In this document: one piece after another, positions 47 through 6,456 of the stretch
Layout of the letters: each line of letters starts with the position of its first letter
Numbering within the stretch: position 1 is the first letter of the stretch
Virus record (IMG/VR): IMGVR_UViG_2529292728_000022
Direction: 5' to 3' (one strand)
DNA length: 6,456 nucleotides
Origin: a virus
Taxonomy: Duplodnaviria; Heunggongvirae; Uroviricota; Caudoviricetes
Translations under genes and position numbers: made by a program
The notes under the pieces: model-generated
What the model was told of the DNA's origin: nothing
The model's database searches: none
What the model saw: the letters and a program-made list of their open reading frames with translations, nothing else

Positions 47-3000
47 ATGGCGACGTTACGTGAACTGATTATCAAAATTTCGGCAAATTCACAGTCATTC
101 CAGTCGGAGATCCAGCGGGCGTCCCGTATGGGCAGTGAATATTACCGGACCCTGCAGAATGGCGGACGTCAGGCTGCTGCGGCAGCCAGGGAGCAGCGAC
201 GTGCCCTGGCAGAACTGAACAGCCAGTTGACGGAAATCCGCGCTTCGGCTGTCGGAATGACCGGTGCGTTTGCCGGTGCCTTTGCCACCGGACACCTGAT
301 TTCTCTGGCGGATGAGTGGAGTTCCGTGAATGCCCGTCTGAAACAGGCATCACAGTCATCCGATGAATTTTCGTCATCACAGAAAGTGCTGATGGATATC
401 AGTCAGCGGACAGGCACGGCATTTTCGGATAATGCGGCCCTGTTTGCCCGTTCGGCTGCCTCGATGCGTGAATATGGTTACAGTGCTGATGATGTGCTGA
501 AGGTGACGGAGGCCATTTCCACGGGGCTGAAAATCTCCGGTGCCAGTACGGCTGAGGCGGGTTCGGTGATCACCCAGTTCAGCCAGGCGCTGGCACAGGG
601 TGTGTTGCGCGGTGAGGAATTTAATTCGGTCAATGAAAGTGGTGACCGGATCATTCGTGCACTGGCTGCAGGCATGGGCGTGGCCCGTAAAGATCTGAAG
701 GCGATGGCGGACGACGGCAAACTGACGGCGGATAAAGTCGTGCCCGCGTTAATCAGCCAGCTGGGGACATTGCGTGATGAATATGCCGCCATGCCAGAAA
801 CGGTCTCTGACGGGATCACAAAGGTGGAAAACGCCTTTATGGCCTGGGTGGGTGGTGCGAATGAGGCCAGCGGGGTGACAAAAACGCTCTCCGGCGTGCT
901 GAACGGTGTTGCCGGACAGATTGATAATGTGGCAACAGCCGTGGGGGCACTGGTTGCCGTCGGGGTTGCCCGGTACTTTGGCAATATGGCCTCCGGAGCG
1001 ATGTCTGCCACGGCAGGACTTGTGACGGCTGCACGTAATGAAGTTGCACTGGCGGAAGCACAGTTCAGGGGAACGCAGATTGCCACGGCGCGGGCAAGAG
1101 CAGCCGTGTACCGTGCTCAGCAGGCCGTGGCGGCAGCCCGCGGGACGGAGATGCAGATTGCAGCAGAGGCCCGTCTGGCGGCCACACAGGAACGCCTGAA
1201 CAGAAATATTGCTGCCAGAACCGCCGCCCAGAATGCGCTGAACAGTACAACGGCGGTGGGCTCACGTCTGATGAGCGGTGCGCTGGGACTGGTTGGAGGC
1301 GTACCCGGACTGGTGATGCTGGGAGCTGCCGCATGGTACACGCTGTACCAGAATCAGGAACAGGCCAGGGAGTCTGCGCGCCAGTATGCACTGACGATAG
1401 ATGAAATCGCGCATAAAACGCCATCAATGTCTCTGCCTGAAGCCTCAGATAACGAAGGGCGAACACGGGCGGCGCTGACAGAGCAGAACCGGCTGATTGA
1501 TGAGCAGGCCAGCCGGGTGAAATCCCTGCAGGAAAAAATCGCCGGGTATCAGTATGTGCTGGCTAATCCGGGCTGGACGACCGGTAACGGCTTCATGATA
1601 AACCATCTGACCTCGGTGAAGACCGTAACGGAAGGGCTTGCTCAGGCAACAGAGCAGCTTGCCGTTGAGCAGTCCCGTCTGGCACAGATGCAGGAAAAAG
1701 CGCAGTCCATTCAGGATGTGCTTGCCGGGCTGGAAGACCGTCGTGTGGCGTTAATTCGTCAGCAGGCGGCAGAGCAGAATAAGGTGTACCAGTCCATGCT
1801 GGTTATGAACGGTCAGCATACGGAATTCAACCGTCTGCTGGGGCTGGGTAATGAACTGCTTCAGCAGCGGCAGGGACTGGTGAATGTGCCGTTACGGCTG
1901 CCACAGGCCACTCTGGATGATAAACAGCAGAGTGCCCTGACAAAAACAGAGCGTGAGCTGGCCCTGTCCAGACTGAAAGGGGAAGAAAAAGAGCGTGTCC
2001 GGCTGGGGTATGCGGCGGATGACCTCGGTTTTGTGGGTGATCCGTATCAGGAGGCGAGACAACGTTATATCAGTAATGCCCTGGAAGCCTGGCGCAATAA
2101 CGAGGCGAATAAACCCAAATCCCGGGGTGGAAAATCAGAGACGGAAAAAGCGGAAGACAGTTTTTCCCGGCTGCTGAAGCAGCAGAAAGAGCAACTGGCA
2201 CTGGCCGGTCAGAACACGGAGCTGGCGAAGCTGAAGTACCAGACAGCGCTGGGTGAACTGAAAACCCTGTCGGAGATACAGAAGCAGGAGCTGCTGCGTA
2301 ACGCGGCCCTGATTGACCAGCAAAAAATCCGGGAACAGTTGCGATCCCGGGAAGAGACCCTGAAGAATGATAATGTGGCTGCGCGTGCATCAAATGAAGC
2401 CGAACTGCTGGGGTACGGGCAGGGAGAACGAGCCAGGGAACGCATGCGGGAGTTGCAGCAGATCCGCGACAGCTTCCGCCAGAAGGATGCGGACCTTCAG
2501 TCTCAGTATCAGACCGGGGATATCAGTGAGGATTTTTACAGACAGGCGCTGGCGCAGAATGCACAGTATCTGAGTGAACGTCTGAAAGAGCAGGAAGCCT
2601 TTTATGCCGAATCGGATGTGCAGCGTGCGGACTGGCAGAAAGGGCTGCAGGAGGGATTCAGTAACTGGGTGGATAATGCGTCCGATTACGCCTCACAGGC
2701 AGCACAGCTTGCGACGGAGGGTATCTCAGGGATGGTGAATAACATCACGGAGATGCTGAACGGAAATAAAGTGGAATGGCGCAGCTGGGCCTCATCAGTG
2801 CTGCAGGAAATATCAAAAGTTCTTATGAATGCCGCGATTGTCAACGGAATTAAGACGGCGGCAAACGGTATGTCCGGTGCGGGAGGATTTCTCGGCAGCA
2901 TTGGTGACTGGCTGGGCGGGGCGGTGGCCAATGCAAAAGGCGGCGTGTATACCTCGGCAAACCTGAGTGCGTACAGCAACAGTATTGTGGATACGCCCAC

Positions 3001-3289
3001 GTACTTTGCCTTTGCAAAAGGGGCCGGGCTGATGGGGGAGGCCGGACCTGAAGCCATTATGCCTCTGACGCGGGCGGCGGATGGCTCGCTGGGTGTGCGA
3101 GCGGTGGGCAGTATGAACGGTAGTGCGGGTCTGGTGTATTCCCCGGTCTACCATATCGCCATTCAGAATGACGGGACTAATGGCCAGATAGGGCCGGAAG
3201 CTGCGGGCACCCTTGTGCAGCTGATTGACCAGCGGGTGCAGGCGGTGATGCTGTCCATGCGACGTGACGGAGGAATGCTGAGTGGCTGA
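47..3289 (+). CDS. H: Tail length tape measure protein (lambda gpH functional equivalent), 1080 aa
   Basis: Longest ORF, directly upstream of M-L-K-I-J homologs (the lambda position of H). ATG at 47 with GGAG SD. Ala/Gln/Arg/Glu-rich low-complexity helical sequence typical of tape measures, with hydrophobic Gly/Ala-rich segments (e.g. ...GALVAVGVARYF..., ...SGALGLVGGVPGLVMLGAAAWY...). The C-terminal region (...NDGTNGQIGPEAAGT...MRRDGGMLSG) matches my recollection of the lambda gpH C-terminus. The N-terminal two thirds do not look lambda-like to me. Confidence 0.88.
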   Translation: MATLRELIIKISANSQSFQSEIQRASRMGSEYYRTLQNGGRQAAAAAREQRRALAELNSQLTEIRASAVGMTGAFAGAFATGHLISLADEWSSVNARLKQASQSSDEFSSSQKVLMDISQRTGTAFSDNAALFARSAASMREYGYSADDVLKVTEAISTGLKISGASTAEAGSVITQFSQALAQGVLRGEEFNSVNESGDRIIRALAAGMGVARKDLKAMADDGKLTADKVVPALISQLGTLRDEYAAMPETVSDGITKVENAFMAWVGGANEASGVTKTLSGVLNGVAGQIDNVATAVGALVAVGVARYFGNMASGAMSATAGLVTAARNEVALAEAQFRGTQIATARARAAVYRAQQAVAAARGTEMQIAAEARLAATQERLNRNIAARTAAQNALNSTTAVGSRLMSGALGLVGGVPGLVMLGAAAWYTLYQNQEQARESARQYALTIDEIAHKTPSMSLPEASDNEGRTRAALTEQNRLIDEQASRVKSLQEKIAGYQYVLANPGWTTGNGFMINHLTSVKTVTEGLAQATEQLAVEQSRLAQMQEKAQSIQDVLAGLEDRRVALIRQQAAEQNKVYQSMLVMNGQHTEFNRLLGLGNELLQQRQGLVNVPLRLPQATLDDKQQSALTKTERELALSRLKGEEKERVRLGYAADDLGFVGDPYQEARQRYISNALEAWRNNEANKPKSRGGKSETEKAEDSFSRLLKQQKEQLALAGQNTELAKLKYQTALGELKTLSEIQKQELLRNAALIDQQKIREQLRSREETLKNDNVAARASNEAELLGYGQGERARERMRELQQIRDSFRQKDADLQSQYQTGDISEDFYRQALAQNAQYLSERLKEQEAFYAESDVQRADWQKGLQEGFSNWVDNASDYASQAAQLATEGISGMVNNITEMLNGNKVEWRSWASSVLQEISKVLMNAAIVNGIKTAANGMSGAGGFLGSIGDWLGGAVANAKGGVYTSANLSAYSNSIVDTPTYFAFAKGAGLMGEAGPEAIMPLTRAADGSLGVRAVGSMNGSAGLVYSPVYHIAIQNDGTNGQIGPEAAGTLVQLIDQRVQAVMLSMRRDGGMLSG

Positions 3290-3623
3290 GATAAAAACGC
3301 TGCATCTGGTCCCGCGTGAAGGGATGCAGGTGAGTGAGAAGCCGTCGGTGGTGAGGGTGCGGTTTGGTGACGGTTATGAACAGCGCCGCCCCACAGGGCT
3401 GAATCCTCAACTGAAGACGTTTCAGGCGGTGTTCCGGGTGACGGATGAGTCAACCCGGCGCTGGCTGGAAGAGTTTTTATCGTGGCATGGTGGTTACCGT
3501 GCCTTTTTGTGGCGACCGCCGAAACATAACCGGACGGTGAGGGTTGTGTGCCGTGAGTGGAGTGTCACGGATAATGCCCGGTACAGTGATTTCAGTTGCA
3601 CGATAGAGCAGGTGGTGAACTGA
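3282..3623 (+). CDS. M: Minor tail protein M (lambda gpM homolog), 113 aa, GTG start
   Basis: The ORF opens right after an in-frame TGA at 3279-3281. The GTG at 3282 is preceded by GGAGG (3268-3272, spacing 9). The sequence ...KTLHLVPREGMQVSEKPSVVRVRFGDGYEQRRPTGLNP...FLWRPP...EQVVN aligns with recalled lambda gpM (...VRKVRFGDGY...FLWTPP...EQVVN). It overlaps the 3' end of H by 8 nt. Confidence 0.85.
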   Translation: MAEIKTLHLVPREGMQVSEKPSVVRVRFGDGYEQRRPTGLNPQLKTFQAVFRVTDESTRRWLEEFLSWHGGYRAFLWRPPKHNRTVRVVCREWSVTDNARYSDFSCTIEQVVN

Positions 3624-4331: not shown

Positions 4332-5075
4332 ATGACACAGACTGAATCAGCGATTCTGGCGCATGCCCGGCGGTGTGCGCCTGCGGAGTCGTGCGGCTTC
4401 GTGGTGAGAACGCCGGAGGGGGAGCGGTATATCCCTTGTGTGAATATCTCTGCAGAGCCGGAGGCGTATTTTCGTATCGCACCGGAAGACTGGCTGCGGG
4501 CAGAGATGCAGGGGGAGATTGTGGCACTGGTCCACAGTCATCCCGGTGGTCTGCCCTGGCTGAGCGAGGCCGACCGGCGGCTGCAGATAAAAAGTGCACT
4601 GTCCTGGTGGCTGGTCTGCCGGGGGGAAATTCATAAATTCCGCTGTGTGCCACATCTGACAGGACGGCGCTTTGAGCACGGGGTGACGGACTGTTACACG
4701 CTGTTCCGGGATGCATACCATCTGGCGGGAATTGATATGCCGGATTTTGAGCGTGAGGATGACTGGTGGCGCAACGGTCAGAACCTGTACCTGGACAATA
4801 TGGAGGCGACTGGTTTTTACAGGATTTCCCTGCCTTCCGCACAGCCTGGCGATATCCTGCTGTGCTGCTTTGGCGCATCGGTGGCCAATCATGCCGCCAT
4901 ATACTGCGGCAACGGTGAGCTGCTTCACCATCTGCCTGAACAACTGAGTAAACGGGAGAGGTATTCCGAAAAATGGCAACGACGAACGCATTCAGCCTGG
5001 CGTCACCGCCACTGGCACGTATCTGCCTTCACGGGGATTTACAACGATTTGGCCGCCGCCTCAGCCTGTATGTGA
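4332..5075 (+). CDS. K: Tail tip assembly protein K (lambda gpK homolog), JAB/MPN + NlpC/P60 domains, 247 aa
   Basis: ATG at 4332, 10 nt after the L stop. The N-terminus MTQTESAILAHARRCAPAESCGFVV matches recalled lambda gpK. A JAMM motif is directly visible (HSHPGGLPWLSEAD = H-x-H-x7-S-x2-D), as are NlpC/P60-type Cys and His contexts (GVTDCYTLF ... NHAAIYCG). The ORF-track start at 4071 lies inside L in another frame and is rejected. Confidence 0.85.
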   Translation: MTQTESAILAHARRCAPAESCGFVVRTPEGERYIPCVNISAEPEAYFRIAPEDWLRAEMQGEIVALVHSHPGGLPWLSEADRRLQIKSALSWWLVCRGEIHKFRCVPHLTGRRFEHGVTDCYTLFRDAYHLAGIDMPDFEREDDWWRNGQNLYLDNMEATGFYRISLPSAQPGDILLCCFGASVANHAAIYCGNGELLHHLPEQLSKRERYSEKWQRRTHSAWRHRHWHVSAFTGIYNDLAAASACM

Positions 5076-5653
5076 ACACGGCAGCGGAAGCCATCCGTGC
5101 CCTGTCGATGCAGATGCCGGGATTCCGCCGTCAGATGAACGAAGGCTGGTACCAGATACGTATTCGCGGTGAGGACACGGCACCGGAGGCGGTGTACGCC
5201 CGTCTTCACGAACAGCTGGGTGAGGGAACGGTCATCCACATTGTGCCGCGACTGGCCGGGGCCGGAAAGGGTGGACTGCAGATTGTGCTGGGGGCGGCAG
5301 CCATCGTGGGCTCTTTCTTCACTGCCGGGGCATCAATGGCGTTATGGGGTTCAGCCCTGGCAGCCGGTGGTTTTTCTGCCACCACGATGCTGTTTTCACT
5401 GGGGGCCAGCATGATTCTGGGTGGTGTGGCTCAGATGCTGGCCCCGAAGGCTAAAGTACCGGAGTACAAAAGCACGGATAACGGCAGACAGAACACGTAC
5501 TTTTCCTCGCTGGATAACATGATTGCCCAGGGGAACCCGATGCCGGTGCCTTACGGTGAAATGCTGGTTGGCTCCCGGCGAATCTCCCAGGACATCAGTA
5601 CCCGTGATGAAGGCGGTGGCGGAAAGGTCGTGGTTATCGGGCGGCAGGGGTAA
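4973..5653 (+). CDS. I: Tail tip assembly protein I (lambda gpI homolog), 226 aa
   Basis: ATG at 4973, in a different frame from K and overlapping its last 103 nt. The N-terminal segment (...ARICLHGDLQRFGRR...AIRAL...GWYQIRI...VIHIVPRLAGAGKGG) fits the gpI ubiquitin-like region and is followed by a Gly/Ala-rich hydrophobic segment. The end ...QNTYFSSLDNMIAQGNPMPVPYGEMLVGSRRISQDI matches recalled lambda gpI. Stop TAA at 5651-5653. Confidence 0.8.
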   Translation: MATTNAFSLASPPLARICLHGDLQRFGRRLSLYVNTAAEAIRALSMQMPGFRRQMNEGWYQIRIRGEDTAPEAVYARLHEQLGEGTVIHIVPRLAGAGKGGLQIVLGAAAIVGSFFTAGASMALWGSALAAGGFSATTMLFSLGASMILGGVAQMLAPKAKVPEYKSTDNGRQNTYFSSLDNMIAQGNPMPVPYGEMLVGSRRISQDISTRDEGGGGKVVVIGRQG

Positions 5654-5654
5654 A

Positions 5655-5685
5655 AAGAATAAAAAAATCCCGCAGAGTTGCGGGG
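5655..5685 (-). terminator. Rho-independent terminator on the - strand at the left edge of the I-J gap
   Basis: Seen in sequence: on the - strand, stem cccgca(5684-5679) / loop acuc / ugcggg(5674-5669), with a possible extra G-U pair, followed by UUUUUUUAUUCUUUUU (+ strand A-run 5652-5667). On the + strand the hairpin is followed by acagacaaag, so it is not a + strand terminator. The U-tract overlaps the stop codon of I. Confidence 0.5.
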
Positions 5686-5752
5686 ACAGACAAAGATTAA
5701 CGTTAAGGAGTTATTTTTGTTTCTGGTGCTCGGGCAAAAAAAACATTAACGC
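5655..5752 (-). ncRNA. Candidate ~100-nt small RNA (moron-like) transcribed leftward between I and J
   Basis: Inference from a - strand promoter (-35 at 5781-5786, -10 at 5759-5764) with a predicted start near 5752 and the - strand terminator at 5655-5685. No ORF with a plausible RBS in the transcript. Contains a 16S-3'-end-like CUCCUU motif and internal self-complementarity (5' CGUUAA vs UUAACG). Confidence 0.22.
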
Positions 5753-5758
5753 AGAGAA

Positions 5759-5786
5759 ATTATTAGCACCACAGTCAGTTTGTGAA
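5759..5786 (-). promoter_or_regulatory. Candidate sigma70 promoter on the - strand (TTCACA-N16-AATAAT)
   Basis: Seen in sequence: - strand -35 TTCACA (+ coords 5781-5786, 5/6 to TTGACA), 16-nt spacer, -10 AATAAT (+ coords 5759-5764, 5/6 to TATAAT), with an AT-rich stretch upstream. A G lies 7 nt downstream of the -10 (about + 5752). Confidence 0.3.
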
Positions 5787-5823
5787 AATGTGAAGATATT
5801 CAGAAGTTTTATTCAATCATGAT

Positions 5824-5854
5824 ACAGGCATCCTCCGGGATGCCTGTTGTTTTT
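5824..5854 (+). terminator. Rho-independent terminator on the + strand, 35 nt upstream of the J start
   Basis: Seen in sequence: perfect 10-bp stem acaggcatcc(5824-5833) / loop tccg / ggatgcctgt(5838-5847), followed by tgttttt (5848-5854). On the - strand the same hairpin is followed by AUCAUGAUUGAAU, which is not U-rich, so it is + strand specific. Confidence 0.55.
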
Positions 5855-5888
5855 GTGCGTAACAGTTATCACAGTAAAGGGTGAGACA

Positions 5889-6456
5889 ATGGGCAAAGGT
5901 GGCGGCAAGGCGCACACGCCGGTAGAGGCAAAGGACAATCTTAAGTCCACGCAGATGATGAGCGTGATTGATGCCATTGGTGAAGGGCCGATTGAAGGTC
6001 CGGTGAAGGGGCTGCAGAGTATCCTGGTGAACAAAACCCCGCTGACGGACACGGACGGTAATCCTGTGATACATGGTGTGACAGCGGTCTGGCGCGCCGG
6101 GGAGCAGGAGCAGACACCACCTGAAGGCTTTGAGTCCTCCGGGGCGGAAACCGCACTGGGCGTGGAAGTGACGAAGGCAAAGCCGGTGACGCGCACCATT
6201 ACGTCCGCGAACATTGACCGCCTGCGGGTCACCTTCGGGGTGCAGTCACTGTTGGAGACCACCTCAAAGGGCGACCGTAATCCCTCTTCTGTCCGACTGC
6301 TGATTCAGTTACAGCGTAACGGTAACTGGGTGACGGAAAAGGATGTCACCATTAACGGCAAGACCACCTCGCAGTTTCTGGCGTCGGTGATTCTGGATAA
6401 TCTGCCTCCCCGTCCTTTTAACATCCGGATGGTCCGGGAGACAGCGGACAGCACCT
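5889..6456 (+). CDS. J: Host specificity / central tail fibre protein J (lambda gpJ homolog), N-terminal ~189 aa only; continues beyond the window
   Basis: ATG at 5889 preceded by AAAGGGTGAG. The translation MGKGGGKAHTPVEAKDNLKSTQMMSVIDAIGEGPIEGPV...AGEQEQTPPEGFESSG...TITSANIDRL...TSKGDRNP...LPPRPFNIRM is open to the window end and closely matches the recalled lambda gpJ N-terminus. It is absent from the ORF track because it has no stop in the window. Confidence 0.9.
   Translation, partial: MGKGGGKAHTPVEAKDNLKSTQMMSVIDAIGEGPIEGPVKGLQSILVNKTPLTDTDGNPVIHGVTAVWRAGEQEQTPPEGFESSGAETALGVEVTKAKPVTRTITSANIDRLRVTFGVQSLLETTSKGDRNPSSVRLLIQLQRNGNWVTEKDVTINGKTTSQFLASVILDNLPPRPFNIRMVRETADST

Follow-up and report, generated by a model that had tools for sequence, protein, structure and literature searches.

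A terminator-type hairpin between tail genes I and J of a lambdoid prophage and its likely place in late transcription

Introduction

Why should an intrinsic terminator stand between two late tail genes, on the very strand from which both are read? Terminators that lie within late operons and are overridden by antiterminated RNA polymerase are textbook features of lambdoid phages. The question arises here from a 6,456-nt stretch of DNA (the window), which its open reading frames and genes place in the tail-tip region of a lambdoid prophage. The window holds an H-like long ORF (47-3289), with small overlapping ORFs also present, then the tail assembly gene I (4973-5653, + strand; 'tail assembly protein' in RefSeq for identical DNA) and, beyond a spacer, the 5' part of the host-specificity gene J (5889-6456, + strand; 'gpJ' in RefSeq), which starts with the ATG at 5889 and runs off the window. 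The J product of the window is 77% identical to that of lambda across 189 aa. From the I stop codon (5653) to the J ATG (5889) runs a spacer of 236 bp that carries no annotation. DNA identical to positions 5640-5900 occurs in many complete E. coli genomes in RefSeq; close relatives of the window are Stx1a- and Stx2c-converting lambdoid phages, and the relatives found in a scan of viral J genes were all 97-100% identical. The late regulator Q and the late promoter pR' lie outside the 6.4-kb window.

Results

The hairpin ahead of J

The hairpin occupies positions 5824-5847 of the + strand, which is the late coding strand, with its arms at 5824-5833 and 5838-5847 and a UCCG loop at 5834-5837. Its sequence, ACAGGCATCC-TCCG-GGATGCCTGT, forms 10 perfect pairs, six of them G-C, around a 4-nt loop of the UNCG type, and a U-rich tract at 5848-5857 (TGTTTTTGTG; UGUUUUUGUG as RNA) follows directly 3' of the stem. 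The start codon of J lies 41 nt downstream on the same strand. In a terminator scan this was the strongest terminator-like site in the window, and RNA folding gave -21.2 kcal/mol (z = -2.7) for the hairpin in a 71-nt context and -17.1 kcal/mol for its 22-nt core. When the whole window was shuffled with its dinucleotide content preserved and both strands were searched for a perfect stem of at least 9 bp with at least five G-C pairs plus a T-run, a comparable site appeared in 3 of 300 shuffles (mean 0.02 per shuffle).

The hairpin thus combines a G+C-rich stem in the range of about 5-14 bp, a short loop, an immediate 3' U tract and pairing that is maintained among its variants, as is expected of an intrinsic terminator. 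UNCG tetraloops are also typical of E. coli terminators. We conclude that the hairpin before J is a genuine terminator-type element, far beyond what chance would provide, and the original prediction of a strong + strand terminator between I and J, with a 10-bp GC-rich stem and a U tract, is borne out by sequence, scan, folding and shuffles alike. A second terminator-like site on the + strand of the window, at 3484-3503, has 8 pairs, five of them G-C, followed by TTTTTGTGGC; it lies on the coding strand within an M-like ORF (3282-3623).

The minus-strand neighbour

The same spacer houses a small minus-strand transcription unit that, judged by its sequence, is a variant of the published sRNA PasB. 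The gene spans 5660-5752, with a predicted 5' end near 5752, a body of about 93 nt, and a terminator stem at 5684-5669 followed by a T-run. It is preceded by a predicted sigma-70 promoter (5759-5786, minus strand) with the -35 hexamer TTCACA at 5786-5781, a 16-bp spacer and the -10 hexamer AATAAT at 5764-5759, giving 10/12 matches. In a second class of spacer, described below as type B (locus L018), the -10 reads TATAAT for 11/12 matches, and E2348/69 is identical there.

PasB is an Hfq-dependent sRNA of EPEC E2348/69, mapped to the minus strand of NC_011601 at 1466343-1466261, between E2348C_1436 and E2348C_1437 (Pearl Mizrahi et al. 2021, Table S6, PMC8550237). We find these two genes to be the I and J homologues of prophage PP6. 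The unit of the window and the PasB of E2348/69 share 78 identical positions over 106 aligned columns and differ mostly by three indels, and the unit likewise lies between I and J, is antisense to them, and has a sigma-70 promoter and an intrinsic terminator. A search of Rfam 15 gave no match in the window and revealed no model for a PasB-type unit. PasB has been described as embedded in a phage structural operon and as widespread in E. coli (2026 preprint, 10.64898/2026.05.13.724894). Compared with the start that we predict from the perfect TATAAT of E2348/69, the published 5' end of PasB (1466343) is displaced downstream by some 15 nt (1344 versus 1359 in locus L003); the 83-nt species may be processed from a primary transcript of about 98 nt, or the RNA-seq-based end may be approximate.

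In EHEC Sakai, EcOnc22, EcOnc23 and EcOnc24 (prophages Sp15, Sp14 and Sp11) are all encoded on the strand opposite to J, and EcOnc22 gives a northern band of about 85 nt that is destabilised without Hfq (Tree et al. 2014). A coordinate shift of about +135, checked at AsxR only, brings EcOnc22 onto the PasB homologue in the Sp15 spacer, and from these positions the unit of the window probably belongs to the same family as EcOnc22-24. The Sakai coordinates of Tree et al. (2014) differ by about +135 nt from the current RefSeq record at 1.27 Mb (NC_002695.1 versus NC_002695.2), and with uncorrected coordinates EcOnc22 would appear to lie on the + strand hairpin and not on PasB.

Two other kinds of prophage sRNA were considered for the spacer and set aside. 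Anti-sRNAs of the AgvB/AsxR type do not account for the minus-strand unit, as they sit at the moron site of pR' and have no Rfam match in the window; HnrS (EcOnc10-12), a multicopy prophage sRNA of 66 nt, does not account for a + strand product, as it is encoded elsewhere, in other prophages.

The candidate + strand promoter and a CRP-like site

A candidate extended -10 element, TGtGAAAAT (TGTGAAAAT), is present on the + strand at 5781-5789, and as predicted it overlaps the minus-strand -35 TTCACA (5786-5781), of which it contains the reverse complement. The predicted geometry of outward-facing terminators is correct as well, since the minus-strand terminator at 5684-5669 is also real. TGtGAAAAT matches the -10 consensus at 4/6 positions, with a best -35 match of 3/6, and a standard promoter scan of the window called no + strand promoter. 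No other promoter-like element stands on the + strand between I and the hairpin, and this one is found in the window, in E2348/69 and in type-B spacers. At the same position phi330-type spacers read ACAGAAAAT and Sakai Sp15-type spacers CCGGAAAT, and both retain the hairpin. Its conservation is explained by its TGTGAA, the PasB -35 read from the opposite strand.

Searching by scan and by hand, we saw no other + strand promoter between the CRP-like site described below and the hairpin, and no promoter for J after the hairpin; the scan also flagged TGaGACAAT, on the + strand across the J start codon. Nor did the scan find a promoter-like element ahead of the corresponding hairpin of lambda. As to the RNA itself, the survey of Hfq-bound RNAs in EHEC (table S2), from which RNAs that do not bind Hfq would escape, lists nothing from the J strand of the spacer among its 60-odd EcOnc candidates, and no RNA from the pasB-to-J intergenic region is among the matches listed from the EPEC RIL-seq tables. 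A promoter of its own conserved together with the terminator, as for an independent + strand sRNA gene, was not found.

Next to the PasB -35, on its upstream side, lies a CRP-like site, TGTGA-N6-TCAGA (TGTGAAGATATTCAGA), at 5789-5804, to which no strand is assigned. It matches the CRP core at 9/10 positions, and one match was seen where 0.21 is expected by chance. The site is kept as TGTGAAGAAATTCAGA in phi330-type spacers, whose left part differs, and its Sakai Sp15 copy has one further mismatch. On this pattern, the putative CRP-like site accounts better than a + strand promoter does for the conserved block that separates the PasB promoter from the hairpin. With its centre some 44.5 bp ahead of the predicted start of PasB, the site does not have the canonical spacing of a class I or a class II promoter, and for this reason we offer CRP control of PasB only as a lead. 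PasB was higher in the non-activating condition and the CRP-repressed sRNA Spf higher in the activating one (PMC8550237), a pattern that fits CRP control of PasB; CRP is not mentioned in connection with PasB in either PasB paper.

Variation within the prophage family

A scan of IMG/VR with a 21-mer from the promoter region yielded 120 loci, all with gene I and a PasB-type unit at the left, save one with an IS629 insertion. To the right of window position 5812 these loci split, with the break directly after 5812, into type A, which has the hairpin of the window, and type B. Type A comprises 14 distinct variants across 109 loci, all with a stable stem (-12.6 to -19.1 kcal/mol) and all 14 with a T-run of at least four T. 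In an alignment of 11 distinct type-A variants 98% of the cells in the stem were paired, compared with 35-49% in slid controls, and one pair changed in a compensatory manner from U-A to C-G with the U-G intermediate observed. The covariation score of the type-A stem was reached by 26 of 500 shuffles, and variation within the family is limited; recurrence across families is for that reason the stronger argument. In complete E. coli genomes the type-A segment is present in 540 of 5426 (at least 95% identity), at 925 places that are all chromosomal and of which none is annotated.

In type B, about half of the sampled loci, the PasB promoter is separated from J by some 190 nt of unrelated DNA. This DNA includes a 10-bp hairpin of its own, CCCCGGTATC-TGCT-GATACCGGGG, with an A-run and a T-run as its flanks. 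A simple terminator rule did not call it, probably because the A/T flanks extend the stem. In the type-B cassette of locus L018 (7925-8100) the hairpin looks bidirectional, and a second, weaker hairpin is also present. In a third and rarer spacer type, which carries a minus-strand lipoprotein-like ORF, no hairpin was seen by eye. One IMG/VR contig (L034, about 440-660) has an IS3-family insertion directly left of GTTCAGTTTGTGAAAATG; it replaces the -10 and the gene of PasB, while the hairpin and J remain, and its OrfA is one that we take to be IS629-like.

The hairpin overlaps a 21-codon ORF (5819-5884, + strand), which was considered as a leader peptide and rejected because it lacks a Shine-Dalgarno sequence, varies in length and undergoes non-synonymous changes in the stem. 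These changes, read from the variants, imply that the constraint is on the RNA and not on a protein. The ORF has a conserved ATG just 5' of the hairpin and its stop codon within the J ribosome-binding site, and is probably non-coding.

The same boundary in other phages

In lambda, I and J are separated by a 60-bp spacer (J02459.1, 15445-15504) that has no sRNA gene, and the notion that the two genes directly abut is ruled out by this hairpin-bearing spacer. The lambda hairpin is on the + strand at J02459.1 15466-15479 and reads CCGCC-TGCG-GGCGG followed by TTTTGTCATTT (UUUUGUC as RNA). A literature search found no description of an I-J terminator in lambda.

Unrelated hairpins with a T-run were found at the I/J boundary of the N15-like phage YDC107_1, of HK75 and of Enterobacter phage LAU1, and a Serratia phage has a hairpin there with a weaker T-run. 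That of HK75, GGCCACC-TTCG-GGTGGCT-TTTTTT, is entered in GenBank as a 'terminator' (NC_016160.1, 14460-14483). UNCG loops cap the stems of the window (UCCG), lambda (UGCG), YDC107_1 (UCCG) and HK75 (UUCG). In lambda and in the HK97-like and N15-like phages the hairpin lies only 18 to 21 nt 3' of the I stop codon.

The virulent T1-like phages SH2, ACG-M12 and KpV522, and the similar LF82-12, also have a terminator at the I/J boundary, which in KpV522 is annotated 'rho-independent terminator' (KX237515.1, 24213-24248). In the T1-like spacers an extended -10 promoter, TGTATAAT or TGTACAAT, lies directly 3' of the terminator (four loci, among them L250 at 297-373), implying that J there starts its own transcription unit.

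In relatives from Mannheimia, Buttiauxella, Burkholderia and Moraxella the genes leave no room for a hairpin, with spacers of 2-14 nt, overlaps or near-abutting genes. Judged by sequence the hairpin is hence dispensable, being missing from the lipoprotein-type spacer and from several relatives. A contig scan across genomes was dominated by lambda contamination and gave few informative species: contigs of lambda or of E. coli prophage occur in many assemblies that bear the names of Streptomyces, Shewanella, Pseudomonas, Bradyrhizobium and other genera, and they look like sequencing-control or laboratory contamination.

Taken together, these comparisons imply that the + strand hairpin is independent of the PasB unit, because type B swaps the hairpin, lambda has one with no sRNA gene beside it, and other phages carry unrelated ones.

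Discussion

We favour, with a probability of roughly 0.6, a reading of the hairpin as this prophage's form of an intrinsic terminator at the I/J boundary, which Q-modified polymerase would pass and which, in the lysogen, would bring unmodified polymerase to a halt. The nascent + strand RNA can fold into the 10-bp G+C-rich stem with its UNCG tetraloop, followed by the U-rich tract. During lytic growth, RNA polymerase coming from pR' and modified by Q would ignore the hairpin, and J would be made. In the lysogen, polymerase that lacks the modification and runs in the late direction, including any that transcribes antisense through PasB, would be released at the hairpin, so that J and the genes beyond it would stay silent. 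The antitermination logic of lambdoid late transcription on which this scheme draws is summarised in PMC7547250. The original prediction had proposed, as the first of two alternatives, just such a Q-tolerated terminator that insulates J, and the proposal fits the recurrence of hairpins at the I/J boundary with or without a minus-strand unit; the insulating role itself we infer from the analogy with other late-transcription terminators. A terminator is also found here in the virulent T1-like phages, none of which is known to use Q, and Q tolerance is therefore not the whole story. Their combination of terminator and promoter makes a role outside Q control possible, for example as an operon boundary or in dosage control.

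Several other explanations have to be set against this one. In the chief rival, the hairpin would act mainly on the lytic mRNA, either as a barrier to 3'-exonucleases that stabilises the Z-to-I part or as a partial attenuator that sets the dosage of J. A stable stem capped by a UNCG loop would make a good exonuclease block, and the same element separates two transcription units in the T1-like virulent phages, which points to a general need to uncouple J. However, a pure stabiliser could do without the U tract, which is present in every sequence class seen and is weak in the Serratia phage alone. Q-modified polymerase passes intrinsic terminators efficiently, so that attenuation during the lytic growth of lambdoid phages should be small, and in the window no J promoter follows the hairpin; we think this explanation unlikely. 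A hairpin without current function, a remnant carried along with a recombination module that contains the J ribosome-binding region, would agree with its dispensability in some relatives and with the low variation within the family, which makes purifying selection hard to prove. Such a remnant is nevertheless very unlikely in our view, as at least five unrelated stems at the same position across phage groups, and two different ones within the family, are hard to explain without selection, and one pair has changed on both sides via a wobble intermediate. That the 10-bp inverted repeat serves as DNA to which a dimeric protein binds, and not as RNA, is extremely improbable. The repeat is a perfect palindrome with a 4-bp centre, and compensatory changes keep the symmetry of the DNA too, but in the E2348/69 variant the loop has grown from 4 to 6 with a changed stem length, U-G wobble variants break the DNA symmetry and keep the RNA pairing, the T-run is on one side only, and the analogous elements in other phages share no sequence.

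As its second alternative, the original prediction had the hairpin form the 3' end of a dedicated + strand RNA of about 58 nt that starts from TGtGAAAAT, back to back with PasB. The standing of TGtGAAAAT as the sole + strand promoter-like element ahead of the hairpin in the window, E2348/69 and type B speaks for such an RNA, as do the conservation of the block 5787-5823 and the fact that A/T-rich promoter regions often fire in both directions. Against it, the conservation of TGtGAAAAT is explained by the PasB -35, and that of the block by the CRP-like site; the element is a poor match to consensus, goes uncalled by the standard scan and is missing from the phi330 and Sp15 spacers, where the hairpin persists. 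The hairpins of lambda and of the HK97-like and N15-like phages follow closely on the I stop codon, in lambda with nothing promoter-like found before the hairpin, and no Hfq peak on the + strand is recorded among the 60-odd EcOnc candidates or among the listed EPEC RIL-seq matches. We give the dedicated RNA very little credence, and the idea of a compact divergent promoter pair is not upheld, TGtGAAAAT being merely the opposite strand of the PasB -35. A more modest reading, itself quite unlikely, would have transcription driven both ways from the CRP-like site, with a short + strand RNA that depends on CRP and has its end at the hairpin.

Returning to the terminator as an insulator of J, a broader and quite unlikely extension would see in the I/J terminator a form of punctuation that lambda-like tail modules have conserved since ancient times, and that serves as a lock or valve for J and as a landing pad for cargo. 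If this were true, temperate lambdoid and virulent T1-like siphophages would have in common an I/J terminator that acts as a safety lock or a dosage valve for the receptor-binding J. In prophages the terminator would have become a preferred landing site for cargo that regulates the host, PasB being an example, since whatever DNA enters immediately ahead of the terminator is by that position insulated from J. Two public phage records, those of HK75 and KpV522, already mark a terminator at this boundary. The boundary element is far more widespread than annotation suggests, being unannotated in lambda and in the 925 chromosomal copies of E. coli. The hairpin matters little alone; it marks the right-hand edge of the PasB slot and so aids the reading of prophage sRNA loci, and the CRP-like site beside it is a testable lead for the regulation of PasB.

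How does the locus compare with systems already known? The PasB unit of the window and that of PP6 share their place in the I-J spacer, their orientation antisense to the late genes, the layout of promoter and terminator, and alignable sequence; the variant of the window differs from that of E2348/69 in a short insertion near the 5' end and in a simpler terminator hairpin. The morons of lambdoid phages are reportedly inserted genes with their own promoter and terminator (Juhala et al. 2000, cited by PMC4104026), and the PasB unit resembles them as a self-contained transcription unit inserted between two late genes. In contrast to a moron, however, PasB is non-coding and reversed in orientation, and the + strand hairpin is not the terminator of the inserted unit. 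The hairpins of lambda and the window both follow the I stop codon on the same strand, 27 to 41 nt before the J ATG, and share a G+C-rich stem, a UNCG loop, a direct 3' U tract and a homologous J ribosome-binding region downstream; the lambda stem, CCGCC/GGCGG, is shorter and unrelated to the CAGGCAUCC/GGAUGCCUG of the window, its spacer has no sRNA gene, and the hairpin goes unannotated in the lambda record. HK75 and KpV522 have in common with the window the gene boundary, the strand and the layout of hairpin and T-run but not the sequences, and KpV522 and the other T1-like phages have a J promoter whereas the window has none. Finally, tR' and the downstream terminators overridden by Q are, like the hairpin, intrinsic terminators on the late coding strand that are expected to stop only unmodified polymerase (PMC7547250). 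The terminator tR' directly follows pR' and its role has been demonstrated, whereas the hairpin of the window stands among the tail genes, far from the late promoter, and its role is proposed by analogy.
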